From an uncultured Candidatus Saccharibacteria bacterium (GTDB lineage Bacteria > Patescibacteriota > Saccharimonadia > Saccharimonadales > AWTP1-31): a stretch of 64,000 nucleotides of DNA. The stretch covers positions 151,547 through 215,546 of the forward strand of contig CALCZR010000059.1 of NCBI GenBank assembly GCA_937903325.1, in the 5' to 3' direction. Shown piece by piece: positions 46,793 through 64,000 of the stretch. The position numbers and the translations under genes are program-made. A model generated the notes under the pieces. The model saw only the letters and a program-made list of their open reading frames with translations, ran no database searches and was not told where the DNA came from. Numbering within the stretch: the stretch's first letter is position 1; each line of letters opens with the position of its first letter.

Positions 46793-48106
46793 ATGCGAAC
46801 ATTAGCAAAAGACGTGGCCAAATCTCCGGAAAAGCAGGTCACTATTCAAGGGTGGATACACAAAAAACGATTACTTGGCGGACTAAACTTCATTAACATC
46901 CGTGACCGCAGCGGTCTCACCCAGGTACTAGTAGAGAAGGGCGATGAAGTTGAAAAGCTTCGTGGCATGCAGATTGGTACAGTAGTAGAAATTACTGGTA
47001 CCGTCTATCCAGACGAACGTGCACCTGGTGGAGCTGAGCTGCACGATCCAGAAATTACCGTCCTGGTTCCCGTAACAGAAGAACCGCCAATTGAAATCGA
47101 CAAGCCGATTAGTCACAAGAGCGAGCACCTCGATACACTCTTTGACCACCGCACTCTTAACGTACGTAACCTACAGGAACAGAAGATCTTCAAGATCCGT
47201 GGTAGCCTGACCCGGCACCTCCGAGACTTCCTATACCAGAACGAATTCATTGAAATCGATACCCCAAAGCTACTCGCAGAAGCAACCGAGGGTGGCGCGG
47301 AAGTATTCCAGCTCGACTACTTTGGTAAGACTGCAACCCTGGCCCAGAGCCCCCAGTTCTATAAGCAGATCATGGTCGGGGCCTTTGAACGAGTTTACGA
47401 AATCGGTCATAGCTACCGAGCGGAGCCAAGTGCAACCACAAGGCATATTACCGAACTAACTATGTTAGATCTAGAGATGGGCTTTGTGAAAGACCACAAC
47501 GAAGTCTTGGACATGGTTGCTGACATGACCCAGTACGCACTGAAGAAAGTCTACGAAGAATACGCGGATGATTTGAAGTCGCTCAACGCGCCAGAACTGA
47601 AACTTCCCGAAGACGGTAAAATTCCACGCTTCACTATTGCTGAGATTCACGAGATGTACACCAAGGCTACCAAGACTGAGATTACTGACCTTAAGGACCT
47701 GACACCAGACGAAGAACGTTGGATTGCTGAATATGCTCGTAAGCAACTCGGTACTGACTTGGTATATGCCGTTCGCTTCCCATTGGCAGCTGGTAAGTTC
47801 TACCACAAGCTCGATGTAGAAGACGGCACCGTCTTCTGGGGTGACCTCATCTTCCGCGGCGTGGAACTAGCAACCGTGCCACTTCGTGAAAACAGCTACG
47901 AAAAGATGCTCGAACAAATGAAGGCAGCCGGCCTAGATGTAACCCACGCAGGTTTCAAACATTATTTGCAGGCCTTTAAATATGGCCTTCCGCAACACGG
48001 TGGTTGTGGCTTTGGTGTTGACCGCTTTGTCATGAAGACCATCGGTCTTGCTAACGTCAAAGAAGCGACTCTCTTCCCCCGAGATATTAACCGACTCGCT
48101 CCGTAG
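46793..48106 (+). CDS. Class IIb aspartyl/asparaginyl-tRNA synthetase
   Basis: An N-terminal OB anticodon-binding domain and class II motifs are present. Motif 3 reads GGCGFGVDRFVMKTIGLANVKEATLFPRDINRLAP. The 437-aa length fits an archaeal-type AspRS or an AsnRS. Confidence 0.85.
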   Translation: MRTLAKDVAKSPEKQVTIQGWIHKKRLLGGLNFINIRDRSGLTQVLVEKGDEVEKLRGMQIGTVVEITGTVYPDERAPGGAELHDPEITVLVPVTEEPPIEIDKPISHKSEHLDTLFDHRTLNVRNLQEQKIFKIRGSLTRHLRDFLYQNEFIEIDTPKLLAEATEGGAEVFQLDYFGKTATLAQSPQFYKQIMVGAFERVYEIGHSYRAEPSATTRHITELTMLDLEMGFVKDHNEVLDMVADMTQYALKKVYEEYADDLKSLNAPELKLPEDGKIPRFTIAEIHEMYTKATKTEITDLKDLTPDEERWIAEYARKQLGTDLVYAVRFPLAAGKFYHKLDVEDGTVFWGDLIFRGVELATVPLRENSYEKMLEQMKAAGLDVTHAGFKHYLQAFKYGLPQHGGCGFGVDRFVMKTIGLANVKEATLFPRDINRLAP

Positions 48107-49950: not shown

Positions 49951-50262
49951 ATGAGCTTACTTACAGACCTCACCCTTGCATATGAAACCCTTGCTGACGA
50001 TCCCATTGAAGTGGGTATCCATTACGGCAAGTCTATTCTTCGTGCCCTATCACCGAGTAGCTCTAGCTCAGTTTCATCTTCTGATTCTCACAAATCTAGT
50101 TCTAGTCCTGTTAGTCTTGCCCGAGTCGCATCGCGCATCCAAATTAATCGAACAGTCCGTCGCAGTGTCGCACCTACTGAGGTCCCACGTGCTAGTTACC
50201 TGAACTATGCAACACGCCGACCAGTTGGGTATACCCAGCGTAATCTCGTTGGTGCTTTGTAG
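49951..50262 (+). CDS. Hypothetical Ser-rich small protein
   Basis: The 103-aa ORF has an ATG start and a low-complexity Ser tract. Confidence 0.4.
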   Translation: MSLLTDLTLAYETLADDPIEVGIHYGKSILRALSPSSSSSVSSSDSHKSSSSPVSLARVASRIQINRTVRRSVAPTEVPRASYLNYATRRPVGYTQRNLVGAL

Positions 50263-50361: not shown

Positions 50362-50868
50362 CTACTTCTTAACTTGGTTGGCTTGGATAGCCTTTACGAC
50401 TTGTCCGTCGTCTTTGAGGTTTTCCCAGAAGAGAACTTGCTTGCTCTCGATGTACATAACGTCATCTGGGCCGTGCAGCTCACTACCGAGCTTAGCGAGT
50501 GAGAGGTTCTGGTCTTTGTTTTCTTGAGTAGCCTGCTGCTCACCTTGGACGTCTTGCTGAACTTGCAAGTAGTAGATGTTCTTTAGGGTGTAGCCAGTGC
50601 CGCTAATCTTGTCGATCTTACCAAAGTAGACTTGGCCGTTGGTTAGGAAAACTGCTTGGTACTTATCTTTGTTAATCTTTCCAGCGAATTCGTTACCCAT
50701 GAGACTCTTCTTAGCAAAGAATCCACCGACGAGAACAACAAGTAGCACGATAACGATTACGATTGCCTTAACGGCGTGTTTTGGTCGTCGGCTGCGGACG
50801 GCGCTGATTGGTGAGCTCGCAGGTGCTTGCTGGCCAGAATTTTGTGAACGTTTAACAACTTGATCCAT
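50362..50868 (-). CDS. Membrane-anchored hypothetical protein
   Basis: The 168-aa product has a single N-terminal TM helix (AIVIVIVLLVVLVGGFF). Confidence 0.5.
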   Translation of the reverse strand: MDQVVKRSQNSGQQAPASSPISAVRSRRPKHAVKAIVIVIVLLVVLVGGFFAKKSLMGNEFAGKINKDKYQAVFLTNGQVYFGKIDKISGTGYTLKNIYYLQVQQDVQGEQQATQENKDQNLSLAKLGSELHGPDDVMYIESKQVLFWENLKDDGQVVKAIQANQVKK

Positions 50869-51008
50869 GAAATTTTATCTCCCTCACTTCATATAAATGG
50901 TCATAGTCAGTGTAGCTCAAAATAAAACCACAAGCAACGAGCGGAATCAACATATCGCCGCTCCAACAGATATGGTAGTATTGGAGCATAAGTATTTTCA
51001 GGAGATTT

Positions 51009-51845
51009 GTGCGACGACATAAAGCAATCTTGGTGGCAATTGTTTTAATGGCAGTTTCTGCTCTTAGTTTGCTGGTTCCTGAATTAGCCCAAGCTGCTCA
51101 AACGTCGACTTCACAAGGCTTCAAGATCAACACTGCAGTGAGCGAAGGTGCGCTGGTGAGTATCGATCAAAAGGATTCCCAAGCCGTGGAGATGGCCAGT
51201 CTTTCCAGTCGTGACGCCATGGTCGGGGTCGCAGTTAGTAATGGCCAGGCACTTGTTACTTTTAGCGATGGATCTGGGAGAGTGCAGGTAGTAAGTAGCG
51301 GACAGGCCCCGACACAAGTCTCTACTGCGAATGGAAATATTAAAAAGGGTGACCGCTTGAGCATCTCACCCATTAGCGGAGTAGCCATGAAGGCTAGTAG
51401 TGCCGGTAAAGTTATTGGTGTGGCTCAACAGGATTTTAATGGCACCGAGTCTAAAGACAAAAAGTCAGTAGAGTTAACCGACAGTGCCGGGCAAAAGAAA
51501 ACAGTGCAGGTGGGCAAGGCGGTTGTGGAAGTATCGGTCGAAGAGTGGGCGCCGAATGGCCAGCCGAACAGCCCACTGCTCAATAATCTGCGTAGTTTCT
51601 TAGGCACCACTGTTGGTAAACCAGTTAGTAACGTCCAAGCGGTCATGGCGGTAGCGGTTGTATTGTTTGCTATCCTCGCCTCCGGTATTATTCTGTATAG
51701 TTCGGTGTCATCGAGTATTCATTCAATTGGGCGGAATCCGTTATCTAAAGGGATTATCCGACGTAGTTTGTTTGTCATGATCGGTCTGTCGGTTATTGTG
51801 GTTGTTGGTGCGGCATCGGCAGTGTATTTAATTCTAGGGGGCTAA
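51009..51845 (+). CDS. Secreted-domain protein with C-terminal ATP synthase c-subunit-like hairpin
   Basis: A signal peptide and a roughly 190-aa domain precede a C-terminal 70 aa that aligns to c-subunit helix-loop-helix: GRNPLSKGIIRRSLFVMIGLSVIVVVGAASAVYLIL versus E. coli [37 protein letters not shown]. The Asp61 position is Val. Confidence 0.5.
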   Translation: MRRHKAILVAIVLMAVSALSLLVPELAQAAQTSTSQGFKINTAVSEGALVSIDQKDSQAVEMASLSSRDAMVGVAVSNGQALVTFSDGSGRVQVVSSGQAPTQVSTANGNIKKGDRLSISPISGVAMKASSAGKVIGVAQQDFNGTESKDKKSVELTDSAGQKKTVQVGKAVVEVSVEEWAPNGQPNSPLLNNLRSFLGTTVGKPVSNVQAVMAVAVVLFAILASGIILYSSVSSSIHSIGRNPLSKGIIRRSLFVMIGLSVIVVVGAASAVYLILGG

Positions 51846-51849
51846 AAGG

Positions 51850-52467
51850 GTGTTTGATGTACGGTTTGTAGGAGCTATCGGGTGTCTGGTTATCGCCGGT
51901 ATTGCTCTTATTCTCCTGATGCGTGAACGTACCTGGGCACGAGATAAATACCGAAAAGAGCTCAAGATGACTATCTTGCAGCCCGACTTTATTGCCAGTC
52001 TCCGTAAAGAACTAGAGAAAGACGTCCAAACTCATGTTAAGGCAGCCATAGCACCGCTGACCAAAGAGGTGGGTGAAGTAGTAGCAGATGCCAAAAAGCA
52101 AACCCTTGCTAATCTTGACGAAAGCCTCAAGGAAAATCGAGCAGCCTTGCGTGAGGCGACTGAAGAGCAAGTTGCAGTTATCAAAAACCTGGTGGCCGGG
52201 GATGCTGGTTCCTTGCAACAGAGTATGGTGACCTTACAGAAAGACATCGAAGACCTGCAGCAAGAACACCAAGCCGTGCTGGCCGATTACCGAACCAAGG
52301 TACTTGCCCGAGTAAAAACACTTGTTGACGAGCAGGCTGCAGATCTTCTGGCGGATTACCTACAAAGTAGCCTGCAAGGCCTAGAGCTTGGTGACCAACA
52401 GGAATTTATCTTAGCTCGTCTCGATGCTAACAAAGACGCGCTATTCAAGGAGCTCGGTAATGACTAG
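51850..52467 (+). CDS. atpF: ATP synthase b-subunit-like protein
   Basis: A single N-terminal TM helix and a long coiled-coil sit between the c-like and delta-like genes in a 205-aa product. Confidence 0.5.
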   Translation: MFDVRFVGAIGCLVIAGIALILLMRERTWARDKYRKELKMTILQPDFIASLRKELEKDVQTHVKAAIAPLTKEVGEVVADAKKQTLANLDESLKENRAALREATEEQVAVIKNLVAGDAGSLQQSMVTLQKDIEDLQQEHQAVLADYRTKVLARVKTLVDEQAADLLADYLQSSLQGLELGDQQEFILARLDANKDALFKELGND

Positions 52468-52906
52468 GTCGGCTATTACTATTCCGGTATCTATTGCCAC
52501 ACTCGAGCAACTCAAGCACTTGTTGACTGAGCTGGATATTGCGCTGTCTAGCAAGCGAACCAAAAGGTCGTTATCTGCAGATTTACAAGCAGCACTGCAA
52601 GAGAATGGCATAGACTCACTAACGGCCCAAACTACCGCCCAACTTCGCTCGGCAGTAAGTGACCTCATTGCACAGCTACCGGTGGTGAAAGTAGTCACTG
52701 CCCAGCCACTCGAGAACGCCCAACAAGCCTCTATCCAGAAGTGGTTTACCAGTAATATTGCCCGTAGAGTTATCTTGAGCTTCAAGACAGATTCGAGCTT
52801 GCTCGCCGGAGTTATTCTGCAAACACCAGAAAACCGTTACGACTTTTCATTGCAAGCAGGACTGTCTACCGGCCGCGCCTTACTAGCTAAGCGGGTGGCC
52901 GCGTGA
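52460..52906 (+). CDS. atpH: ATP synthase delta (OSCP)-like subunit
   Basis: The C-terminus RVILSFKTDSSLLAGVILQTPENRYDFSLQAGL fits the delta-subunit pattern. The ATG at 52460 overlaps the atpF stop by 8 nt, and the stop overlaps the atpA start. Confidence 0.5.
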   Translation: MTRSAITIPVSIATLEQLKHLLTELDIALSSKRTKRSLSADLQAALQENGIDSLTAQTTAQLRSAVSDLIAQLPVVKVVTAQPLENAQQASIQKWFTSNIARRVILSFKTDSSLLAGVILQTPENRYDFSLQAGLSTGRALLAKRVAA

Positions 52907-54315
52907 GCCAGCTGTTTAATCGTCTGGTGGCAGCCAATATGCCGGTTGGTGAAATCGTGGCGGCTAACCGTTTTATCCTGACGGTCACTGGTATGCCAGG
53001 CATCATGCTGGGTAGTCAGGTGGTGACCGAAGACGGAAACTTAGGTTTTGTTCGCAGTATTGCCGACGAACTCGTGACAGTGGATCTACTGACTAGTGAA
53101 AACGCGGTTGTTGGTAGCGGCATTGTTATGTACAAGCCAGAGCTGACCATTGCTCCCAGCCGTTCCTTACTCGGTCGAGTTGTTGACCCCCTCCTAAAAG
53201 GGCTCGATGGTGGATCGCCTATTCTGTCTAAGGAATCATATCCGGTGTTTGCACCGGCTCCGACGTTTGCAGAGCGTGTCATGTTGAATCAGCAGCTGGA
53301 GACAGGTGTTACCGTAGTAGACACTTTGTTCCCGATTGTCATGGGACAGCGTATTGCCATTATGGGGGATGCTAAGTCTGGTAAGACCAGCTTTGCAGCC
53401 CAAGCGGCTGTTAACCAAGCTCGCATAGGGCGCATTGTGGTATTTGTACTCATAGCTAAACGTAAGACAGATGTCGAACAACTTGTAGATTACCTTGAAA
53501 CCAATGGTACTCTCAAGAACACTGTCATTATCGTGGCCGACAGTCTTGCCGCCTTGCCGCTGGCGTTCCTGGCACCATATTCCGGTGCGGCGGTGGCCGA
53601 ATACTTCTGGCACAATGATTCGGACGTCGTAATTATCTACGACGATCTGGCTAGCCACGCCAAAGTCTACCGAGAGATGTCACTACTCGGCGACGCTTCA
53701 CCGGGCCGTGAATCATATCCTGGGGACATGTTCTACCGACATTCGTCACTCCTGGAACGAGCGGGCAAGCTCAAGGTTAACCAGCGATCGTTGTCGGCCC
53801 TGCCAATTATGACTACTAGCAACAACGACATAACCAGTCACTTATCTACCAGTCTTATTTCTATTACTGACGGACAGATTATCTTTGACACCGAGGAAAT
53901 GCAGAAGGGTGCCACACCACCGGTTAATGTGGGCTTAAGTGTTTCGCGTGTTGGTGGTCGTGCGCAAGAAAGTATGCAAAAGGCTATGGCTCAGGATATC
54001 TTTACGACGCTGGCCTCCTACCGACAAGCAAGTGAGTTTGCACACTTTGGCCAAGAACTACCCGACCAGTACCGTCAGGCACTGCGACTGGGTGATCGAA
54101 TCCGGACATTCTTTAACCAGGCTCCTAACGAATTCTTTACGTTGCCCGAACAGCAGGTCATGCTCAAGACGGCATTTCTGGCAGGTGACAAAATGCTGGA
54201 CATGCCAGCTATTAAGAAGGCGGTGAAGAAGGCGGTGAATAGTGCCTTGGCCTCTGAGACACACAGTGATCTAGCCCAGAAGATGGTTGAAAAGCACGTG
54301 GAGCATAAATCATGA
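52903..54315 (+). CDS. atpA: F1 ATP synthase alpha subunit (divergent)
   Basis: LLGRVVDPL...VDTLFPIVMGQRIAIMGDAKSGKTSFAAQAAVNQ carries a Walker A of GDAKSGKT against the canonical GDRQTGKT, and DELS is replaced by DDLA. The product is 470 aa. Confidence 0.85.
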   Translation: MSQLFNRLVAANMPVGEIVAANRFILTVTGMPGIMLGSQVVTEDGNLGFVRSIADELVTVDLLTSENAVVGSGIVMYKPELTIAPSRSLLGRVVDPLLKGLDGGSPILSKESYPVFAPAPTFAERVMLNQQLETGVTVVDTLFPIVMGQRIAIMGDAKSGKTSFAAQAAVNQARIGRIVVFVLIAKRKTDVEQLVDYLETNGTLKNTVIIVADSLAALPLAFLAPYSGAAVAEYFWHNDSDVVIIYDDLASHAKVYREMSLLGDASPGRESYPGDMFYRHSSLLERAGKLKVNQRSLSALPIMTTSNNDITSHLSTSLISITDGQIIFDTEEMQKGATPPVNVGLSVSRVGGRAQESMQKAMAQDIFTTLASYRQASEFAHFGQELPDQYRQALRLGDRIRTFFNQAPNEFFTLPEQQVMLKTAFLAGDKMLDMPAIKKAVKKAVNSALASETHSDLAQKMVEKHVEHKS

Positions 54316-55163
54316 ATGCCCATACCCGAATCCTCAAAGACGAACTCCAAACTGTACGGGTCATAGAGGACCTAACGGAAGTGTTCCAGAACACTTCCAG
54401 CGTAAAGATCCGCTCTATTCGGAAGCAGGTGTTAAGTTCCAAAATGTTCTACAACGACCTGTGGGATATTTACCAACAACTTAGAACTGAAACGCGCATA
54501 TCGCTACGGGATGCAGCGAGTAGTGACAAAGAACTATTTCTGTTTATCGCTTCTCCGGCGGGGTTGGCGGGGCAGAACGATGAGCAGATTATGCGTGACC
54601 TCAAAGAACACTACAACCCCGCCCGCCAAGACGTGGTGGTTATTGGCTCGCACGGAGCCCAACTGCTCAAACAGCATGGCATTAAGCCGGTTAGGGCTTT
54701 TGAAGTGCCGGACATTACTAAAGACTTTTCAGTGACACCGATCGTCGATATTATCCGTTCCTACGAAACAGCCGTAGCTTTTTATGACGCCTATCTTTCA
54801 TTAACTACCCAGCAGTCTGCCAAGCGTCAGTTCCTACTGGAAGCCCAACAGCTAACAGATGAAGAGCGGGCATTAATCGAAACGGGCGAGGCTGAGATTA
54901 TTGCATCCGGTAACTACATTTTCGAGCCGTCACTTGAGGTAGCGATCTTAACTTTGGAGCAAACTATGTTGTATACCACCGTCACGCAGTTGCTACTGGA
55001 ATCACGTCTGGCGCAGCTGGCTAGCCGCTTTACCAACATGACATTGGCTCATGAACGTGCAGTGAAGCAGCGCAAGAAAACCTTCCTAGAATTTTTATCG
55101 AGTAAGCGTACCGAACGCGACGAACTAACACGGCAAATTACCATTGCAGCAAGGGGGGTATAG
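54312..55163 (+). CDS. atpG: F1 ATP synthase gamma subunit
   Basis: The 283-aa ORF sits between alpha and beta with ATGA overlaps on both sides and has conserved N- and C-terminal helices. Confidence 0.65.
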   Translation: MNAHTRILKDELQTVRVIEDLTEVFQNTSSVKIRSIRKQVLSSKMFYNDLWDIYQQLRTETRISLRDAASSDKELFLFIASPAGLAGQNDEQIMRDLKEHYNPARQDVVVIGSHGAQLLKQHGIKPVRAFEVPDITKDFSVTPIVDIIRSYETAVAFYDAYLSLTTQQSAKRQFLLEAQQLTDEERALIETGEAEIIASGNYIFEPSLEVAILTLEQTMLYTTVTQLLLESRLAQLASRFTNMTLAHERAVKQRKKTFLEFLSSKRTERDELTRQITIAARGV

Positions 55164-56572
55164 TGGCTGCTAAAACACATGCTGGGCAAGTCGGGTATAT
55201 TCGTTCACTGAATGATCTGTTTGTTGTTATTCGACTAACCAGCGAACAGCGGCCCGGAGCTGGGCAGACCCTCACTATTGTTGATAAGCCGGAGGTGATA
55301 CTCTTGGTTGAGGCCTCCACTGAAGATACCGTCTACTGTCTGAACATTTTTGGTTCACCAAACATCCAACAGCATGACGTTGTATTGATCGGTGACCAGT
55401 CAATTATGTTGCCGTCTGGCCAATCTGTTTTGGGGCGAGTATTTGATTCAATGGGTCGAGTGATTGACGGTGAAGGAGACTTCAAGGGCGGACACAAGCT
55501 GCCAATGCGTACGGTTGTTAAGCAGCAGCTGGGCAAGAAGAATAAGCCCGAAGTTTTGGAAACAGGTATCAAGGTTATTGATTTCCTAGCTCCCTTCGTG
55601 AAAGGCCGGCGTATCGGCATTATAGGTGGTGCGGGTGTCGGTAAAACAGTATTAACCACCGAAATGATGCACAACGTGGCCGACAAGAAAGCAGCACTCA
55701 GCTTCTTTGTCGGTATTGGTGAGCGTATCCGTGAAGGGCACGAACTATACCATACCCTTAAGGACCGCGGGCTCGGTGAATCGACCGTCATGTTCATGGG
55801 GCAGATGAACGAAAACGCTGCGCTCCGTTCACTGGTTGGTCCGTCCGCCGCAACGGTGGCCCACTCATTTACCGAACAGGGTAAGGACGTACTGTTCTTC
55901 GTTGATAACATCTACCGTTTTGTGCAGGCTCGTAATGAACTGGCTGCCATGCGTGGTACCACGCCAAGTGAGGGTGGCTACCAGGCTAGTCTGTTCTCGG
56001 ATTTGCACCGTTTCGAAGATTCACTTCATGCCACTGAAAAGGGAAGTATTACGTCTATCCAGTCCATCTTTATCCCGGCAGATGACCTCAGTGATCCGGC
56101 GGTAGTCGAGATTAGCCAACAACTTGACTCCACTATTGTGCTGTCTCGTGATGTCTTTGAGCGCGGTATATTCCCGGCGGTTGATCTACTTAACACCACG
56201 AGCTCACTCATCACCCCAGAGATACTCGGAGAACGCCACTTTAACCTTGTGGGCCGAGTTAAGGCCGTGATGCGTAAGTACTACAGTCTGCGTACCATTA
56301 TTGCTATTGTCGGTGAAAGTGAGTTGTCACCAGAGGATCGACTAGACTACGAACGGGCTCAAGAACTCACCCAGTTCTTCTCGCAGCGTATGTTTGTAAC
56401 AGAAGACCTCAGCGGTAAAAAAGGCGAGTACTTTACCCGCGAGCAAACCCTGAAGGGTGTTGAAAAGATCCTAAATGGTACCAGCACGCCAGCGCCAACA
56501 GAACCACCAAAGGAAGAAGCCGAAGCCAATACGGCACAGGCCGATACTACCAATGAAGCACCTCACAGCTAA
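55163..56572 (+). CDS. atpD: F1 ATP synthase beta subunit
   Basis: GGAGVGKTVLTTEMMHNV (Walker A) and VLFFVDNIYRFVQARNELAAMRG...DDLSDPA are present. Confidence 0.95.
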   Translation: MAAKTHAGQVGYIRSLNDLFVVIRLTSEQRPGAGQTLTIVDKPEVILLVEASTEDTVYCLNIFGSPNIQQHDVVLIGDQSIMLPSGQSVLGRVFDSMGRVIDGEGDFKGGHKLPMRTVVKQQLGKKNKPEVLETGIKVIDFLAPFVKGRRIGIIGGAGVGKTVLTTEMMHNVADKKAALSFFVGIGERIREGHELYHTLKDRGLGESTVMFMGQMNENAALRSLVGPSAATVAHSFTEQGKDVLFFVDNIYRFVQARNELAAMRGTTPSEGGYQASLFSDLHRFEDSLHATEKGSITSIQSIFIPADDLSDPAVVEISQQLDSTIVLSRDVFERGIFPAVDLLNTTSSLITPEILGERHFNLVGRVKAVMRKYYSLRTIIAIVGESELSPEDRLDYERAQELTQFFSQRMFVTEDLSGKKGEYFTREQTLKGVEKILNGTSTPAPTEPPKEEAEANTAQADTTNEAPHS

Positions 56573-56816
56573 CCCCGAGCTTACCGTAAAAGCCTATTCC
56601 ATGAAGGAAGTCATGTTTGAGGGCAAGGCTTTTTCGTTATCTGCTGCTAACAAAATTGGACCACTCGATGTGCTTCCTGGACACGCCAATATGCTCGCCA
56701 TATTAACCGACTGCACAGTGGTCATTGAGACTGAACAGGGTGAGAAGACATTTCAAATCGATAACGGCATTCTGAAGGTTTCTAGTAACCAAGTTTCGCT
56801 GTTTATTAATCTCTAG
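56553..56816 (+). CDS. atpC: F1 ATP synthase epsilon subunit (N-terminal beta-sandwich only)
   Basis: ELTVKAYSMKEVMFEGKAFSLSAANKIGPLDVLPGHANMLAIL fits the epsilon N-terminal domain. The 87-aa product has no C-terminal helical hairpin. The ATG at 56553 overlaps atpD by 20 nt. Confidence 0.6.
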   Translation: MKHLTANPELTVKAYSMKEVMFEGKAFSLSAANKIGPLDVLPGHANMLAILTDCTVVIETEQGEKTFQIDNGILKVSSNQVSLFINL

Positions 56817-56852: not shown

Positions 56853-59800
56853 ATGTATAAGCATGAGCACAGTACTATGAGGGTTATTGGCACACGTACG
56901 GTGCACAGAATACGGGCAGGGGTTACCCGACTGTTTCCTATACTTAAAACCATACTGGCCATTGGTGTTCCATCGCTTGTCGTGTTGGGTGTCAGTTGGA
57001 TACCTTTAACGCAGCGTCTGTATAACAACTTAGACCAAGCACCGAGCCAAATCTCTAACACTAGTGTCTCGTCCTATCTACTTGTCTCTACGGTCATCGC
57101 TCTAGGAATTGGTATTGCTCTGTATCTGCTTATTGACTATCGGCAACACCGAAAACCCCTTAAAGTTGCTATGCCGACGATTCGCTACAACCTCCGGCAC
57201 CACGTTCGAGTGGTAACATTACCATTAGCACGGAGTAAGTGGAAGGTGCTTACATTCAGTACTGTAAAGGGGCTTGCTAGCTTTGCACTGGTGGGGGTGG
57301 CGATTGTTTTTGGGGTGCAGCACCTTGCTCAAGCAAAGAATTTTGACATTACTATTGCCGGTGACGGTGCCGGAAGATTTGTTGCATTCACGCCAACACC
57401 AAAAATTAGAGGGACCGCCGCGCCAAATAGCGTACTGTCCGTTACCGTGGACAACACGCTGGTGGGCACGACAACAGTTAACACTAAAGGTCAGTGGGTG
57501 TACCAGCCAACTTCTAATCTCTCCATTGGTGAGCATAGTATCAAGGTAAGTTCCTTTGAGTCAGGAAAATACACATACATGGAGAGCGACCAAGGGTTGG
57601 CTGTCATTAATACGCTGGAGCATCGTGTCTCTGGCAATATACCATTACCCATGGACGTTATAAGCGAAGCCGGTAACCCTACTAATAAAACGACAACGGT
57701 AGCCACTCAGACAGTTGCCGGAAAAGTCTACGCCCTGTCAGCGCCTAATACTAACGGTGGAACTCCGAACTTTAGCAGTGGTTATGTAACAATAGTTAAT
57801 GCAGCTGATGGGACGGTTATTAAAAACCTCGCGCTATCTTTTCGTCCGTCGGTTCTTTCTGTCAGCCCAGATGGGCTGAGGGTTGTGGTGGTCGGCAGTA
57901 GTTCAGATAATAATGGACAGGAGCAGGCAACCAATATAGCTATTGTGGATGTCGCGAGCGACGAATTTTCAGGATCGGTCATATCGCTTGAAAAGCGTTA
58001 CTTTCTGACTAACGATCCTTGGCAGGGTCTATTTAGTCATGACCCAACGGTGTACCTGATCCGGACTGCCCATATGTTTTACTCCATAAATCTCGATACT
58101 GGTTCGGTCGCACAGCTTGACCTGACCACCTACACTTTCAACGACACGTATCGAATGGGCAGCCTCAAAGTTAATCTGGCACACAACAGTAACACGGTGT
58201 ATCTGCTAGGCGATGAAGTGGTCATCAAAGTTGACCTCGATAGCTTTACGGTTGTTTCAGACATCGATACCCACGATGGCTTTATCTATACCACGCCTAC
58301 TGCGGCTTTTATAACTAACGACGACAGTAAATTGATCTACCTGGATGCACGCACGACTGCCGGTAGTGGGGTCAGACGGATGATTACAATCGATCTAAAT
58401 ACAGAGACCATACTGACTCCACTACTATTGAACGATACTATGCGATTGCCAGATGAAATAATAACTGACAGTGCGCAGCACAAGGCATATTTTGTCTTTG
58501 AAGATGACAGTAACCAACAAATTGCGGCAGAGATTGTTGTAGCTGACCTGGTAAACAATGTCTTGCTCGCTCCTATCCCTCTTACTGATAATTATTACAG
58601 CCCGGGCAGAACTTTGTACTCCTCGCCGGTAGATCCTGATATCGCCTACTACCTTGATAATATTGAGAGTGATCAAACCACAGGCAACGTGTATGAACTT
58701 AACTTAGTTACTGGTGCGTCTGAGCTTATTTCAGAGATTCCCAGCTATAACATTGGGTTTACGCAGGCAGCAGGGGATACCTATCTGTTCTATGATGGAC
58801 GAGTTAATAACGAAATCGGTCTTACATACATCATGCGTAATATAACTACTGGGACGAACTATACGCTCGCATCGCCTTTTAATACCCAGCTATACACAAC
58901 ACAGCTTAGTAGCAGCGCTACTGCAACGCAATCCAGTACTGCTGAGAAGACCATACAGTTTACGGTGGCTACAGTGAGTATTACTGAGCCTTTGCCGCAG
59001 ACTCCAATTATGGGCACGAGCTACACGTTGCACGGCAAGGCATTGGCAGGGTATCAAGTCGAAGTCTTAGTTGGCGATGAGTCTAAGGGTGTTACGACAA
59101 CGGATCAAAATAATGACTGGTCCATGGAGGTCACCGGCCTAACGCCTGGCGATATTGATATAACCGCTCGGGCTAGTCTTGATTCTGTCGGTATCCCTAT
59201 ATTCTATATTTCTGCTGATTACAGCATAACTGGCTTCCATGTGTACAACGTGGAGAAAGACCAAGTGGAAGTGCATGACGATACTAACTTTGGAGGGAGT
59301 GTCCCTATCATAACGACACCTGACGGTAGTGTATCTTTTACGCTCGATTTGACACACCTTTACGAAAACCAAGGTGAAGGGCTAATACACAAATACAACA
59401 TTGTAACGAAGCAGAACGAGGGCGATCTCATTTTACCTGATGAGTATGTCGACGAGATATTCTCCAATAGCATGAACTTCTTCTCCGAAGACGGAAAGCT
59501 CCTATACTTTCTTGACTCCGACGACACCGACAGCTTTCTGGCGCTTGATGTAGAGACACTTACGTATACCCAGGCAAGCCTTGGTATAAACAGTAATGAC
59601 TTCAGTATCTCCTATGGGGATATGCAGCAGGTTTCCCAAAGTGCCGATAGGCGATATGTGTATCTACCAGGATGGGAAGACAATTCGATACATGTGCTCG
59701 ACACCAACACTAAGCAGATGCAGGTAATCACTGTTGGCAGGACGGTAGGGGCGGTTATGACTCCGGCTCCAGGCTATATCGTTGCCGTAGTAGGAGATTA

Positions 59801-61982
59801 CGACCAATTCAATAGCTCTGTTCTGAATATTGATGGGCTCAAAGTATTGAGTACAGATGACTATAGCCTTTTGGGTGACGTGCCACTTTCGTCATCGGAC
59901 TATCGGGATATTGACCTCTACCAGCGTCAGAACAAGCTATTTGTAGTCCCACGAAACCAGGACTCTGACTTTACGAGCATGCCGATAGTTAACACCAGTA
60001 ACTGGTCAATTATCGATACGGTTTCCCTAGAATCACCGGGCTACTCCAATGGTTCGAGCGGGACAGCTTTTGGTGCGGGCTTTAGTGCAGACGGCAGTGT
60101 TGGCTTTTGGTTCTCTAGTACCGATAACTTGATTCATCGGTTCGATACAAGTGATGGCCATGCTCTAGCAAATGTGGAGCTCCCGACTATGATCGATGCC
60201 ATTTATCCTGCCCCAGATAGTGCGGATGAATATGGATTCCGTCTGCATGATAACAGCTTTGGTATCTACAACATTGCGACGAATACTATAGGTGACATTA
60301 TTCAAGCCGGGCTTTCGGGGTTTGCAGGTGCTGACATCTTTAACAATACGACGCTGAGATATTTCAAGGGATTTGTAGCAGCTGAAACAACCGTCCAATT
60401 CACCGTCCAAGATGGTGATCCTGAAGATCCACCAGTGACTCCTCCGACGCCGACTACTCCTACCACTCCCACGACCCCTACTACGCCTACACAATCCACC
60501 ACACCTCGTCGTACTCCGCAGCCAACCACTAACCCAAACCAAACTTCTCAGCAACCCGAAACGGTAGTGCCAGACATACCAGTTACACAGCAGTATACCG
60601 GTGGTATTACGGAGTTGCCGGTTGCAAAAGCAGAAGTTAAAAAACCATTCATCTCCGAGCCGTTGGCCCGTGCTTTGTCGTGGCTACTGCTCCTTATCTT
60701 GCTCATTCTCGCCATCCTATATGGACGACGAGCCCGCAGGGAATACCTGGTACGCAAGCAACTCGAGCAAAGCCTGGCGCACCTCCGTGGCATGAAGCAA
60801 GCAGCCGACAGCTATCTGGAAATCACCACACACTATCTCAATACACCGGTGGCCATTATGAACGGGGCGGTGGAGTTGCTGGTATCACTCAAGAAGCTTC
60901 CGGACTGGGCGATACAACGACTGCAAGCTGAGCTCAAGAAATACGGTGATTCGGTGGCTCGTCTGAGTGCGGCAAGTCAGACTATGTCCGTTGCGCAACC
61001 AGAGGTGACGGGCACGGTTATGAGCGCTGCAGTTGCACGAACGAGCCCACTCAAACAGCGAGCGGTATGGCTGCCCATTAGCATTGTTGTGGGGCTCTTT
61101 GGGCTTGTTTCGGTGCTGTTCGCATTCACGGGTGTGTACTCACTGGGCAGTGTGCAATTTGGTTTGCAACTACTCTGCCTGGCATTGACTGCTGGGTTGA
61201 TCGTAACGGCGCAGCGCAGCAAAGACATTCAGCTTGCGGCGCAGGAAGCGGCGCGAAGTGCGGCTAATACAGAAAAAGATTTGATACGGAAACGTGAGGT
61301 ATTCTTACAGCAATCTTCGACGGTTCTTGCGGAGCACCACGAGAACCTGACGATAATCAGTAAAGACCTGCACGTTATACCGGAAACCAGAACCTTCTAT
61401 AACGGTCTGGGCATGCTTGGTCAGATGGTGCAAAGTCTTAGCAAGGTTGGCCGATTCAGTAACACGACGGCCGATGCACCAATACTTGATCTGGGGCAGG
61501 AAATACCGCGGGCACTTGCTGCACTGCAAAGCAAAGCTACTGAAAAGCAGGTGCAACTGCAACTGGATATTCCTGCTAGTTTGAATCTGGCAATTCAGCC
61601 GCAAGAGCTAAGCCAGCTGGTGCAGTCACTAACCGACAACGCCCTGATATTCAGTAAACCAAATGGCCGGGTCACGTTGTCTGCACAGGGATCTGGCAAC
61701 TGGATTATGCTTAAAGTGATCGACGCTGGTAGTGGTATTGAGCCCGAGCGTCTCGCACACATCTTCGAACCGTTTTATAGGGCTACAGACGCTGAGACGT
61801 TTAACTACGAAGGTCTAGGGCTTAATCTCCATGTCGACAAGCTTGTCGTCGAGAAGCTCGGCGGCACCATTGACCTCAAGAGTAGCCGTACTGGCACTAC
61901 CGTAACTCTGCGGTTGCCAGCATCTCAGCTCACGAAGCTTGAGGCTCCAATGTTGGTTGCTCCAGTGCCCGCAGCTGGCTAG
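56853..61982 (+). CDS. Giant 1709-aa membrane protein: Ig-like plus YVTN-like beta-propeller ectodomain, PT linker, membrane-embedded histidine kinase
   Basis: Three N-terminal TM helices are followed by Ig-like segments and beta-propeller repeats (VLSVSPDGLRVVVVG...IAIVDVASDEF; NSIHVLDTNTKQMQVITVG). A PT linker (TPPTPTTPTTPTTPTTPT) and a TM helix lead into H-box-like ITTHYLNTPVAIM, a TM hairpin, a second H-box-like LAEHHENLTII, an N-box DNALIF, G1 VIDAGSGIEPERL and G2 GLGLNL. Confidence 0.8.
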   Translation: MYKHEHSTMRVIGTRTVHRIRAGVTRLFPILKTILAIGVPSLVVLGVSWIPLTQRLYNNLDQAPSQISNTSVSSYLLVSTVIALGIGIALYLLIDYRQHRKPLKVAMPTIRYNLRHHVRVVTLPLARSKWKVLTFSTVKGLASFALVGVAIVFGVQHLAQAKNFDITIAGDGAGRFVAFTPTPKIRGTAAPNSVLSVTVDNTLVGTTTVNTKGQWVYQPTSNLSIGEHSIKVSSFESGKYTYMESDQGLAVINTLEHRVSGNIPLPMDVISEAGNPTNKTTTVATQTVAGKVYALSAPNTNGGTPNFSSGYVTIVNAADGTVIKNLALSFRPSVLSVSPDGLRVVVVGSSSDNNGQEQATNIAIVDVASDEFSGSVISLEKRYFLTNDPWQGLFSHDPTVYLIRTAHMFYSINLDTGSVAQLDLTTYTFNDTYRMGSLKVNLAHNSNTVYLLGDEVVIKVDLDSFTVVSDIDTHDGFIYTTPTAAFITNDDSKLIYLDARTTAGSGVRRMITIDLNTETILTPLLLNDTMRLPDEIITDSAQHKAYFVFEDDSNQQIAAEIVVADLVNNVLLAPIPLTDNYYSPGRTLYSSPVDPDIAYYLDNIESDQTTGNVYELNLVTGASELISEIPSYNIGFTQAAGDTYLFYDGRVNNEIGLTYIMRNITTGTNYTLASPFNTQLYTTQLSSSATATQSSTAEKTIQFTVATVSITEPLPQTPIMGTSYTLHGKALAGYQVEVLVGDESKGVTTTDQNNDWSMEVTGLTPGDIDITARASLDSVGIPIFYISADYSITGFHVYNVEKDQVEVHDDTNFGGSVPIITTPDGSVSFTLDLTHLYENQGEGLIHKYNIVTKQNEGDLILPDEYVDEIFSNSMNFFSEDGKLLYFLDSDDTDSFLALDVETLTYTQASLGINSNDFSISYGDMQQVSQSADRRYVYLPGWEDNSIHVLDTNTKQMQVITVGRTVGAVMTPAPGYIVAVVGDYDQFNSSVLNIDGLKVLSTDDYSLLGDVPLSSSDYRDIDLYQRQNKLFVVPRNQDSDFTSMPIVNTSNWSIIDTVSLESPGYSNGSSGTAFGAGFSADGSVGFWFSSTDNLIHRFDTSDGHALANVELPTMIDAIYPAPDSADEYGFRLHDNSFGIYNIATNTIGDIIQAGLSGFAGADIFNNTTLRYFKGFVAAETTVQFTVQDGDPEDPPVTPPTPTTPTTPTTPTTPTQSTTPRRTPQPTTNPNQTSQQPETVVPDIPVTQQYTGGITELPVAKAEVKKPFISEPLARALSWLLLLILLILAILYGRRARREYLVRKQLEQSLAHLRGMKQAADSYLEITTHYLNTPVAIMNGAVELLVSLKKLPDWAIQRLQAELKKYGDSVARLSAASQTMSVAQPEVTGTVMSAAVARTSPLKQRAVWLPISIVVGLFGLVSVLFAFTGVYSLGSVQFGLQLLCLALTAGLIVTAQRSKDIQLAAQEAARSAANTEKDLIRKREVFLQQSSTVLAEHHENLTIISKDLHVIPETRTFYNGLGMLGQMVQSLSKVGRFSNTTADAPILDLGQEIPRALAALQSKATEKQVQLQLDIPASLNLAIQPQELSQLVQSLTDNALIFSKPNGRVTLSAQGSGNWIMLKVIDAGSGIEPERLAHIFEPFYRATDAETFNYEGLGLNLHVDKLVVEKLGGTIDLKSSRTGTTVTLRLPASQLTKLEAPMLVAPVPAAG
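60436..60540 (+). repeat. Low-complexity Pro/Thr-coding tract (CC/AC-rich) within giant gene
   Basis: ACTCCTACCACTCCCACGACCCCTACTACGCCTACA encodes the (TPT) linker. Confidence 0.5.
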
Positions 61983-62108: not shown

Positions 62109-64000
62109 ATGGAAAATAAACAAGTTGGCCAGTCCCAAAATACGGCCAATAACACCGGTTTAGAAAGCCTGGAACAGGTACCGGCAACTTCTCGCGTTGC
62201 GCCTATTAGTGCATCCAAAAATCCCTCATCTCGTCCAACTCGCCCCTGGAAAAAGCAGGCAATGCTCTTGGCGGTTGTCTTGCTATTTGTTGGCGGGCTT
62301 GGAATTGCCGCCCTGCAACTAGCCGGTAAGGTCAAGAATGCTGGTAAGAACCAAGATGCTTTCGACAGTTACAAAACAGTTAACAACCCAGTCCTCGGCA
62401 ATGACACCCTGTTGCCTGTACAGTCCCTAAATGATCAAACGGTGACTATTAACGGTGATCTGACCGTACAAGGGAAGTTGAATCTTTCGGCTCAAGCACT
62501 GAATGACCTGGCAAGTATTCTTGGCAATACCGTTCGTCTGACCCCAGTGCTCGGTGGTCCAGCACAAGCCGGGAATATCAACATCTCTGGTGGTGTAATG
62601 GCTAGCACCTTCCAGGGTAACGGCGCAAACCTGTCTGACCTTAATGCCAGCAGCATTACTAGTGGTACGCTCAACAACGAACGTCTTGACGCCAGCGTAA
62701 CCAAGCTTGGCCAGACTATTCCACTGAGTGCTTTGCAATCCACCGTGCTTTCAAGTCTAAACGGTATCTCCAATAACGGAGCAGCTTCGATCATCGGGAC
62801 AGGTAGTGTGACCGTATCGACAGACATAGCAAACGGAGTGATCACTATCGACAGCGTTGCTGGCGACATTACTGGCGTGGCCGTAGGTAGCGGACTGCTG
62901 GGCGGTGGCACAAGCGGTGACGTAACTCTGAACCTGGATACCGGTATCGTAACCATGCAAGGTAACACCTTTAACGGTGCTAACCAGTTGGTTAAACTCG
63001 GTAGTTCTGGTGAACTGCCGGTCATTAGTGCCACTAACCTGACAAACTTAAACGCCAGCAACTTGAGTACTGGAACTGTTAACGACTCACGGCTCAGCAC
63101 TAATGTCACGGTGCAAGGCAACAGTTTCAATGGCACTAACCAGCTCGTGAAGCTAAACGGTGCAGGGGAATTACCTTCACTAAGTGCTACTAACCTCACC
63201 AACCTCAACGCCAGCAATATCGGTACTGGTACACTCAACGACGCTCGCCTTGGTGGTAACGTAACGCTTCAAGGCAACACCTTTAACTTGGCTAACAAGC
63301 TGGTGCAACTGGACAGTAGCGGTAATCTGCCATCGCTTAATGGATCAGCCATTACTAACCTAAATGCCGGCAACGTAAGCAGTGGAACCCTGGCAGACGC
63401 ACGACTGAGCGCTAATGTTGCGCTACTAAATGCTAACCAAACCTTCACCGGAAATGTCGTGTTTAGTCAGCCGCTTTCCGTAAATGTTATTCAGCCTTCT
63501 GCAGCTATGACCATTGGGGCAACTAACCAGGCCTTGACTCTACAAGGTGACCTAACTACTAAGCTGACAGGTACCGGCGGTACCGGTACGGTAAGCCTTG
63601 GCTTTACCGGTACTCCTGTCGGTAATGTGGTGTACCAGCTCGACGCGTCTGCCCCGGCTGGAACGTACACTCTCTGTACTTCAGTTGGTAACTGTGCTGG
63701 TTCTGGTGACGGCGTTACTTCTCCTGGCGGTACCACTAACAAAATCGCTAAGTTTGTCGGTGGCCAAGCTGTTGGCGACAGTTCAATCTCTGACGATGGA
63801 CTGCTCGTAACCGTTGGTGCTAATGCGCTGTACAAGGCTGGCGCAGATTCTACCACCGCCTTCCGAGTACAGAACGCTGCCGGCTCTACCAACGTATTTA
63901 CCGTAGACAGTACTAACACACGAGTGGCCATTGGGCAGAGTACCGCTAACTATACCCTGGACGTAAATGGTGACATCAACTCTGCTACCGGCCTTCGAGT
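62109..64000 (+). CDS. Tail-fibre-like repeat surface protein, 3'-truncated at window edge (absent from ORF track because no stop)
   Basis: My own translation from the ATG at 62109 reads MENKQVGQSQ..., with an upstream in-frame stop at 62052. It has an N-in TM helix (AMLLAVVLLFVGGLGIAAL) followed by repeats such as QGNTFNGANQLVKLGSSGELPVISATNLTNLNASNLSTGTVNDSRL. The open frame continues to 64000. Confidence 0.7.
   Translation, partial: MENKQVGQSQNTANNTGLESLEQVPATSRVAPISASKNPSSRPTRPWKKQAMLLAVVLLFVGGLGIAALQLAGKVKNAGKNQDAFDSYKTVNNPVLGNDTLLPVQSLNDQTVTINGDLTVQGKLNLSAQALNDLASILGNTVRLTPVLGGPAQAGNINISGGVMASTFQGNGANLSDLNASSITSGTLNNERLDASVTKLGQTIPLSALQSTVLSSLNGISNNGAASIIGTGSVTVSTDIANGVITIDSVAGDITGVAVGSGLLGGGTSGDVTLNLDTGIVTMQGNTFNGANQLVKLGSSGELPVISATNLTNLNASNLSTGTVNDSRLSTNVTVQGNSFNGTNQLVKLNGAGELPSLSATNLTNLNASNIGTGTLNDARLGGNVTLQGNTFNLANKLVQLDSSGNLPSLNGSAITNLNAGNVSSGTLADARLSANVALLNANQTFTGNVVFSQPLSVNVIQPSAAMTIGATNQALTLQGDLTTKLTGTGGTGTVSLGFTGTPVGNVVYQLDASAPAGTYTLCTSVGNCAGSGDGVTSPGGTTNKIAKFVGGQAVGDSSISDDGLLVTVGANALYKAGADSTTAFRVQNAAGSTNVFTVDSTNTRVAIGQSTANYTLDVNGDINSATGLR
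62958..63425 (+). repeat. Three tandem 156-bp (52-aa) repeats within tail-fibre-like gene
   Basis: The units start at 62958, 63114 and 63270 and are about 65-70 percent identical at DNA level. Each encodes QGN[ST]FN..N.LV.L...G.LP..S...LTNLNASN...G T..D.RL. Confidence 0.7.

Follow-up and report, generated by a model that had tools for sequence, protein, structure and literature searches.

Background

Operons for canonical F-type ATP synthase (F1Fo), with the gene order atpIBEFHAGDC, exist in Saccharibacteria, as in Southlakia epibionticum (SEML1_0349-0357; PMC10633639), and the enzyme is variable within the group, being present in G1 and absent in G6 (PMC8386444). A survey of ATP synthase evolution noted 'minimal complexes' in the candidate phyla radiation (CPR), whose F-type enzymes share ancestry with Chloroflexi (PMC10656485). 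Outward-acting F1 motors that lack ion coupling have been described in mycoplasmas only: the MIB-MIP-linked Type 3 'F1-like X0' ATPase (MSC_0618/0619), called mycoplasma-specific, is encoded by a seven-gene cluster with alpha-, beta-, gamma- and epsilon-like subunits and no a subunit, and both this ATPase and the Type 2 ATPase of gliding include a protein in which a signal peptide and an ectodomain precede two C-terminal transmembrane helices, and are thought to pass force outward (PMC12994834). Here, we analyze a 64-kb stretch of DNA from an uncultured Candidatus Saccharibacteria bacterium (contig CALCZR010000059.1; the whole stretch of 64,000 nucleotides (nt) is called the window), which carries at 51009-56816 a seven-gene operon related to that of the F-type ATP synthase. 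Our preferred reading, held with moderate confidence, is that this locus encodes a Patescibacteria-specific paralogous F-type rotary ATPase without an ion path, which would act on the cell surface through ATP hydrolysis. Given that there is no proton-channel subunit, that the ion-binding residue has been lost and that an external domain has been added, ATP is probably burned for an action at the cell surface rather than made. The functional model is based on homology, conservation and gene neighbourhood, together with predicted structure.

If this reading holds, the operon represents an independent case of an outward-acting F1 motor, present in at least two classes of the largest uncultured bacterial radiation. 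In the literature that we searched, we found no description of this Patescibacteria system and no report of a c-type hairpin joined to an external domain.

Gene content and comparison with described enzymes

The operon consists of seven plus-strand genes in the order c-like, b, delta, alpha, gamma, beta and epsilon. The first three are named here as open reading frames (ORFs) 1 to 3, and lengths are in amino acids (aa).

51009-51845, plus strand: ORF1, 278 aa, leading gene of the operon; signal peptide, ectodomain and hairpin derived from subunit c
51850-52467, plus strand: ORF2, 205 aa, an N-terminal transmembrane helix followed by a long helix; homologue of the b subunit (peripheral stalk)
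52460-52906, plus strand: ORF3, 148 aa, delta/OSCP homologue, recognizable in its C-terminal domain alone
52903-54315, plus strand: alpha-like subunit, 470 aa
54312-55163, plus strand: gamma-like subunit, 283 aa (Pfam ATP-synt, 75.8 bits)
55163-56572, plus strand: beta-like catalytic subunit, 469 aa
56553-56816, plus strand: epsilon-like subunit, 87 aa, beta-sandwich domain alone

Following the gene callers, 52460 and 56553 are the likely starts of the delta (148 aa) and epsilon (87 aa) genes. The junctions, in gene order, are a 4-nt gap, an 8-nt overlap, GTGA, ATGA, a 1-nt overlap (TAGTG) and a 20-nt overlap; the initial annotation of this DNA had reported ATGA overlaps throughout, and while the tight junctions are real, not all of them are of the ATGA type. 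Its gene order, and its statement that no atpB gene lies by the first gene, are borne out by rereading and by searches for the missing subunits. When the canonical a and c subunits of the CPR operon L046 were used as tblastn queries, both genes were located beside 32 canonical beta genes, and neither an a gene nor an ordinary c gene was detected in the 64-kb window or in 27 related loci including their flanks. No gene of the operon matches ATP-synt_A or ATP-synt_C, and no multi-pass membrane protein is conserved within or beside the operon. Canonical CPR operons keep atpB-atpE adjacent to atpF.

The genes for the head and stalk are recognizable and divergent. Pfam matches comprise ATP-synt_ab in alpha and beta, ATP-synt in gamma, the epsilon beta-sandwich and the C-terminal part of OSCP in ORF3 (38.7 bits at positions 104-166 of 172; E 1e-11 with a hidden Markov model (HMM) of canonical delta). 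All five F1 subunits score below their NCBIfam equivalog cut-offs (atpA 337 vs 484; atpD 385 vs 463; atpG, TIGR01146, 61.6 vs 194; atpH 33.9 vs 57.5; atpC 37.6 vs 67). The models for mycoplasma F1-like ATPases and N-ATPases are missed by wider margins than these canonical equivalogs: MSC_0618_beta scores 383.6 against a cut-off of 570 and MSC_0619_alpha 267.1 against 520; glide_MMOB1660/1670 score 294 against 600 and 315 against 850; and the N-ATPase models TIGR03305/TIGR03324 are far from reached, with 353.6 against 752 and 328.8 against 750.5. ORF2 alone belongs to no Pfam or NCBIfam family, and its identity as b comes from family profiles: a profile of 20 ORF2 orthologues and one of 50 canonical b sequences find each other against a background of 5,922 ORFs, at best with E-values of 4e-6 and 6e-7, above noise. 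Reciprocal HMMs likewise pair delta, gamma and epsilon with their canonical counterparts.

The catalytic motifs are retained. In the window, beta carries Walker A (GGAGVGKT, 55625-55648), GIGERIREG (55712-55738) and Walker B (LFFVDNIYRF, 55892-55921), and alpha carries the arginine finger (LSVSRVGG, 53935-53958); in 20 of 20 aligned operons, beta keeps its Walker A, GERxRE, Walker B and adenine-pocket motifs and alpha keeps its arginine finger. The alpha P-loop, GDAKSGKT at 53365-53388, had been annotated as non-canonical; it does depart from the GDRQTGKT of F1 alpha, but it fits the general pattern GxxxxGK(S/T), and GD(S/G/T)K(S/V)GK(S/T) is the alpha P-loop signature of the whole family. The N-terminus of the window alpha is about 13 residues shorter than that of canonical alpha, the 469-aa beta has no N-terminal extension, and epsilon lacks its C-terminal helices, as had been noted from the sequence. 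Taken together, these motifs and homologies indicate a catalytically intact alpha3beta3-type head with gamma, a short epsilon and a b/delta peripheral stalk.

Like canonical F1Fo (atpIBEFHAGDC; Southlakia SEML1_0349-0357, L046), this operon has c (as a hairpin), b, delta, alpha, gamma, beta and epsilon in the same order, with intact catalytic residues and a hairpin whose N-terminus is predicted to lie outside and whose R-N-P loop is predicted to lie inside. Unlike canonical F1Fo, it has neither an a subunit nor atpI; its c homologue has lost both the carboxylate and the glycine motif and has gained a signal peptide and a secreted domain of about 180 aa; the C-terminal helices of epsilon are absent; the N-terminal domain of delta and the N-terminus of alpha have diverged; and beta is only about 41% identical.

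The likeness to the mycoplasma Type 3 ATPase lies in a seven-gene cluster that includes an alpha-, beta-, gamma- and epsilon-like set, in the absence of an a subunit, in the proposed direction of ATP energy outward to surface proteins, and in a protein with signal peptide, ectodomain and two C-terminal transmembrane helices, the last matched by architecture and description. The differences are that the Patescibacteria system keeps b and delta, that its two-helix protein is, by profile comparison, demonstrably c-derived, that its cluster has neither the 12-helix membrane protein nor the small cytoplasmic protein, and that the hosts belong to another phylum. No MIB or MIP domains appear in the Pfam tables of the neighbouring genes, in which no search aimed at MIB/MIP was made. 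The Type 2 G1-ATPase of Mycoplasma mobile, which drives gliding, is also F1-derived and thought to drive giant surface proteins, and here genes for giant surface proteins lie 3' of the operon; unlike that enzyme, the window beta lacks the N-terminal extension and is closer to Bacillus-type F1, and b, delta and a c derivative are present. We suggest that the system resembles the mycoplasma F1-like ATPases in its logic and that it probably had an independent origin.

N-ATPases provide a further parallel as a second F-type operon in addition to the canonical one; they have a and c subunits with ion sites, AtpQ/AtpR and a different gene order. Hairpins of the c family without a carboxylate are also found in c1 of Acetobacterium woodii and in V-type proteolipids, where they share rings with hairpins that do have a carboxylate, opposite an a subunit. 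In the present system, by contrast, the carboxylate is missing from every copy, the hairpin is fused to an ectodomain, and an a subunit is absent.

The first gene and its relation to subunit c

The features of ORF1 are as follows.

51009-51095, plus strand: signal peptide, aa 1-29, with predicted cleavage between AQA and AQ (from the sequence; helix 2-20 in the AlphaFold2 model)
51108-51548, plus strand: beta-rich ectodomain, aa 34-180, with a phage capsid decoration/cement fold by structural match of the predicted domain
51630-51839, plus strand: C-terminal transmembrane helical hairpin, aa 208-277, homologous to F-type subunit c
51729-51740, plus strand: cytoplasmic loop G241-R-N-P244, the IGRNP motif common to CPR and Chloroflexus c subunits
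51792-51794, plus strand: Val262, in register with the ion-binding Glu/Asp of subunit c

No family in Pfam or NCBIfam matches ORF1 alone. An AlphaFold model that used 40 family members (mean pLDDT, a per-residue confidence score, of 86) contains a signal helix, a beta-rich domain, a short helix and the long hairpin helices 208-242 and 244-277, so that both the sequence and the model agree with the initial annotation of a 278-aa protein in which an ectodomain lies between a signal peptide and a C-terminal hairpin of two helices. The predicted ectodomain matches the fold of phage capsid decoration (cement) proteins, and c subunits and the modelled hairpin can be superposed to 1.3 A, with a TM (template modelling) score of 0.88.

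The decisive evidence for the origin of the hairpin comes from sequence profiles. Searched against 177,635 distinct PDB sequences with E-values up to 10, the hairpin profile retrieved c subunits and nothing else: a first profile found Chloroflexus c at E 0.053, and a profile of both ORF1 subfamilies found Chloroflexus c at 0.002 and Acetobacterium c2 at 0.009. That Chloroflexus c is the best PDB match fits the shared ancestry of CPR and Chloroflexi F-type enzymes (PMC10656485). Among the 5,922 ORFs, more than 20 canonical c subunits (1e-4 to 0.06) rank right after the family itself, and other proteins appear only from E > 1.6. In the reverse direction, the canonical c profile retrieves ORF1-type proteins at 2.9e-6 and 3.5e-5 and the ORF1 of the window at 0.0074. 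Searched to E 1e-3, an independent set of 4,089 ORFs yielded ORF1-type proteins or ORFs of 68-89 aa and nothing else; judged by their size and expected gene position, these short ORFs are probably canonical c subunits. Three family members carry the annotation 'ATP synthase subunit c' at JGI. These profile matches indicate that the ORF1 hairpin is homologous to, and descended from, F-type subunit c.

The loop between the helices is the most conserved part of the hairpin. CPR c subunits carry AMEAIGRNPEA at this position, and G-R-N-P is invariant in 240 of the 240 ORF1-type proteins listed. The c-likeness that had been annotated from the window sequence thus stands at the level of profiles and of this loop, but the FxxMGL motif also cited for it is not conserved in the family. 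Because ORF1 has a signal peptide, the ectodomain is predicted to be outside, with helix 1 running inward, the loop in the cytoplasm and helix 2 running outward, which would make the protein a subunit c with an additional external N-terminal domain. Both termini of the hairpin then lie outside and the R-x-P loop in the cytoplasm, matching the c family.

What the hairpin does not retain is the ion-binding site. As the initial annotation stated, the carboxylate position is occupied by valine (Val262, in register), and neither helix of the window protein contains Asp or Glu. An acidic residue in helix 2 occurs in none of 120 Gottesmanbacteria/Microgenomatia-type members and in 23 of 120 Saccharimonadia-type members, where, in the examples read, it lies closer to the cytoplasmic end than the carboxylate position does. 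Among the 240 ORF1-type members listed, none has a carboxylate in register.

A lineage apart from the canonical ATP synthase

To assess the relationship of the operon to ordinary ATP synthases, we compared the beta subunits. In a neighbour-joining tree of 79 betas, those of the Saccharimonadia family are monophyletic (100/100 bootstrap), and 100 of 100 replicates likewise separate every ORF1-linked beta from every canonical one, including those from CPR. Canonical betas are on average 70% identical to one another and 41.5% identical to the ORF1-linked ones; within the Nomurabacteria type, canonical betas share 87-100% identity. Against the PDB, the window beta scores about 334 bits with Bacillus-type F1 betas and 254.7 bits with the G1 beta of Mycoplasma mobile, and in a set of 1.8 billion cluster representatives its identity to proteins from outside the family never rises above 47%. 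Many of the nearest beta-like cluster representatives (P0122-P0270) are unusually long (590-870 aa), and one of them (P0130, 594 aa) ends in a cyclic-di-GMP-binding domain of the MshE type; there may be other atypical F1-beta derivatives in metagenomes.

The two types also occur together. One metagenome-assembled genome (MAG), CAYLQG01, contains a canonical-type alpha-gamma-beta-epsilon locus (L031, epsilon of 149 aa) as well as an ORF1-type operon (L067), a co-occurrence within a bin and not within a closed genome; the two betas are 40.8% identical, and the GC contents of the two contigs are 47.1% and 46.3%. The 'Gammaproteobacteria' label of this MAG is probably wrong, given the score of 710 bits between its canonical beta and one from CPR. 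A metagenome scan with the canonical beta of L031 found 80 canonical loci, none of which shares a contig with an ORF1 gene or with a second alpha/beta pair. A protein search with the beta of L046 found no contig shared with ORF1-bearing genomes, because the L046 beta is of the Nomurabacteria/Paceibacteria type.

On this evidence, the operon appears to be a separate paralogous lineage and not a damaged ordinary ATP synthase. Its initial description as an F-type ATP synthase operon with missing parts is therefore misleading, in view of the separate beta clade, the sub-equivalog scores and the canonical-type locus in the same MAG. Should a canonical operon be present elsewhere in this genome, it would be the organism's ordinary ATP synthase and not the missing half of this one, and the operon would not become trivial.

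Several observations on labels and gene structure were made along the way. L046 (CAZRUN010000009.1) is labelled Saccharibacteria despite its Nomurabacteria/Paceibacteria-type beta. The MAG labels of L030, L031, L033, L037, L051, L057, L067 and L088 look wrong, and several of the bins named 'uncultured Gammaproteobacteria' have CPR-type atp genes with an IGRNPE c-loop. Two canonical loci (L059:5486-6037 and L074:5469-6023) have ORFs of about 183 aa with two tandem c hairpins, and in two further ORFs a c hairpin stands at the end (L082:4489-5985, 498 aa; L047:6248-6694, 148 aa); the latter two could be fusions or artefacts of ORF calling.

Distribution and surface-protein surroundings

At least 163 proteins of about 250-300 aa are related to ORF1, and the names that its homologues bear put the organism in Saccharimonadia (TM7). 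A scan with an alignment of family betas as query, taking one genome per species, found the operon in about 22 species labelled Saccharibacteria, Saccharimonadales or Patescibacteria, one of which is represented by a complete chromosome of 1.19 Mb (OY970378.1). Other large sequences with the operon are ERZ25039480 contig_74641 (1.22 Mb) and JGI Ga0565006_000004 (755 kb). Distant versions of the operon (L044, L057, L067) led to a second ORF1 subfamily of at least 344 proteins, including Gottesmanbacteria, with the same seven-gene order. Wherever the upstream region was available, in Saccharimonadia, Gottesmanbacteria and other Patescibacteria, ORF1 is the first gene in 24 of 27 loci. The layout without an a gene, and with a first gene that is c-derived, carboxylate-free and ectodomain-bearing, is thus conserved over two Patescibacteria classes, and this conservation, together with the profile-level kinship of the hairpin to c, upholds the initial suggestion of a remodelled or non-canonical membrane sector.

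Most Saccharimonadia relatives have a conserved block of genes 3' of the operon (L006-L029; for example, L010:11635-17958). It encodes an anchored fibre-like protein, three to four paralogous secreted proteins that end in ...YxxTLTYIxTxTF (for example, ...PAGTYTTTLTYIxTATF), a C-terminally anchored protein and an Ig/PKD-like protein, and no sequence relatives of these block proteins were found in Pfam or the PDB. We considered whether the secreted proteins have WxL domains; Pfam and PDB sequence searches gave no support, and one precomputed weak WxLIP_PGBD match on a neighbouring gene was not reproduced. The block does not always follow the ATPase genes. In L007 (10862-18204) it lies directly 3' of ORF1 with no ATPase genes between them, in L005 two ORF1 paralogues stand among giant Kelch-repeat proteins, and three operons without ORF1 (L016, L026, L028) also lack the block. 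Hence, ORF1 co-varies with the surface proteins as well as with the ATPase.

Functional model and alternative explanations

In the preferred reading of a rotary ATPase without an ion path, the complex could not couple to an ion gradient, neither being driven by one nor building one. In ordinary enzymes, gamma and epsilon engage the RQP/RNP loop of c-rings. Here, ATP would be hydrolyzed, and gamma and epsilon would engage an ORF1 oligomer at its cytoplasmic GRNP loops, which are invariant; the hairpins would then carry torque or a change of conformation across the membrane, to the outer domains first and through them to cell-surface proteins. The targets may be the giant surface proteins of this genome and the conserved secreted or anchored block in the relatives, and candidate outputs are adhesion, movement on a host, or remodelling of a surface assembly.

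Several points weigh against this reading. The tie between ORF1 and the F1-like head is one of genes and homology, and without an a subunit nothing evident would hold the b stalk relative to the rotor. The search of this organism's own genome for a and c covered the 64-kb window. Three operons (L016, L026, L028) have b-delta-alpha-gamma-beta-epsilon without ORF1, with a cysteine desulfurase gene directly 5' of the b-like gene, and two loci (L005, L007) carry ORF1 homologues with no ATPase genes within 10 kb. The window ORF1 alone falls short of the Pfam ATP-synt_C threshold, although the family profiles match c subunits, and an hhalign comparison of the hairpin profile with eight c subunits gave a probability of 7%, with the loop alone aligned; this comparison was superseded by the profiles made from canonical c subunits. 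Finally, the GxGxGxG packing motif is absent, helix 1 having 1.5 glycines per 24 residues against 6.6 in canonical c, so that a ring of ORF1 is not assured, and the trimers that phage decoration domains typically form are an awkward fit for one.

The alternative that survives best, though we regard it as unlikely, is that ORF1 is no ATPase subunit at all. ORF1 would be an anchor or partner of the surface proteins encoded beside the operon, and the head would be anchored by b alone or serve another partner. The ORF1 homologues that adjoin surface-protein genes away from any ATPase genes (L005, L007), the joint absence of ORF1 and the secreted-protein block from three operons and the loss of the c-ring glycine motif all speak for it, and these exceptions to the linkage keep it alive. 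Yet ORF1 keeps the first position in 24 of 27 operons over a deep divergence and is separated from the next gene by 4 nt in the window, and the sole invariant residues of the hairpin are in the cytoplasmic loop. In F-ATPases, this loop of subunit c is what contacts gamma and epsilon. The simplest explanation for a hairpin descended from subunit c is that it still has a role in the complex.

A split but otherwise ordinary ATP synthase, in which this operon would supply the only F1 head of the cell while atpB and atpE lie elsewhere in the genome and ORF1 is an accessory, seems improbable to us. It would sit well with the window-sized scope of the search in this genome, with the three operons that lack ORF1 and with the variable presence of canonical F1Fo in Saccharibacteria (G1 yes, G6 no; PMC8386444). 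Against these stand subunits far more divergent than the canonical CPR ones, in a separate clade with 100/100 support; the placement of atpB-atpE next to atpF in canonical CPR operons; the MAG that also has a separate canonical-type alpha-gamma-beta-epsilon locus; and a c-derived gene in the first position of the operon across two classes.

We consider it very improbable that the complex still moves ions by a chemistry of an unfamiliar kind, one that would draw on polar hairpin residues and an unrecognized channel partner. Helix 1 ends in the Ser/His-rich stretch YSSVSSSIHS in the subclade of the window, and b and delta are kept, as in coupled enzymes; however, this stretch sits on the cytoplasmic side of the helix and the family as a whole does not conserve it, no conserved multi-pass membrane protein lies in or beside the operon, and none of the 240 members listed has a carboxylate in register. 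The least credible alternative, a decaying and functionless remnant of a duplicated atp operon, could appeal to the absent a and c subunits, to the shortened epsilon and to the dispensability of the predicted ATP synthase in a cultured Saccharibacterium (PMC10633639), though the operon there is canonical, but it is contradicted by intact and coupled reading frames, by catalytic residues kept in 20 operons and by hundreds of family members in two classes with their gene order preserved.

Returning to the rotary ATPase without an ion path, we can extend it, tentatively and with a good deal of doubt, to an unrecognized rotary motor. An F1-like head would turn or twist an oligomer of c-derived hairpins with an external crown and thereby drive giant adhesins or a secreted assembly for attachment to, or movement on, a host; part of the 'ATP synthase' that has long been a puzzle in non-respiring CPR bacteria would be this machine and no ATP synthase, and subunit c might likewise be the ancestor of the two-helix proteins in the mycoplasma Type 2 and Type 3 ATPases. 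Since b, delta and a c derivative are retained, the evolutionary route from an ion-driven rotor to an outward-facing actuator may be readable in this system. KEGG and Pfam surveys would probably count these alpha to epsilon genes as 'F-type ATPase', so that statements on energy conservation in CPR may be partly wrong. The system also offers a concrete target for genetics in cultivable Saccharibacteria and for cryo-electron tomography.

Neighbouring genes in the window

The operon is flanked by the following features.

50362-50868, minus strand: 168-aa gene upstream of, and divergent from, ORF1
50869-51008: divergent intergenic region of 140 nt between the starts of the 168-aa gene and ORF1
56877-61982, plus strand: 1701-aa protein with transmembrane segments, a Big_13 Ig-like domain and a C-terminal HATPase_c (histidine-kinase-type ATPase) domain
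62109-64000, plus strand, continuing as L092:15233-25106: 5' part of the gene for a 3841-aa surface protein

The upstream gene had been described as convergent with the operon; in fact, the two are divergent. A GGAG ribosome-binding site lies a few bases 5' of the GTG start of ORF1. No consensus sigma-70 site was found in the intergenic region 50869-51008, promoter and terminator scans gave nothing exceeding chance, and no terminator was found between the epsilon gene and that of the 1701-aa protein. The 3841-aa protein has an N-terminal transmembrane anchor and fibre-like repeats, with CBM_4_9 and Kelch propellers past the end of the window, and it is weakly similar to the 'c5' gene located 3' of the operon in relatives. 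The 1701-aa protein is a candidate part of the system by its position, and the 3841-aa protein is likewise a candidate.

Further upstream, a 103-aa ORF at 49951-50262 has a serine-rich stretch (SSSSSVSSSDSHKSSSS); it matches no family and is called as a gene in related contigs. A gene for a class II aminoacyl-tRNA synthetase of 437 aa (tRNA-synt_2 and OB anticodon domain) lies at 46793-48106 of the window, a few kb 5' of the operon, and the same gene is found a few kb 5' of the operon in the distant relative L006 (6438-7751), which hints at an old local gene order.

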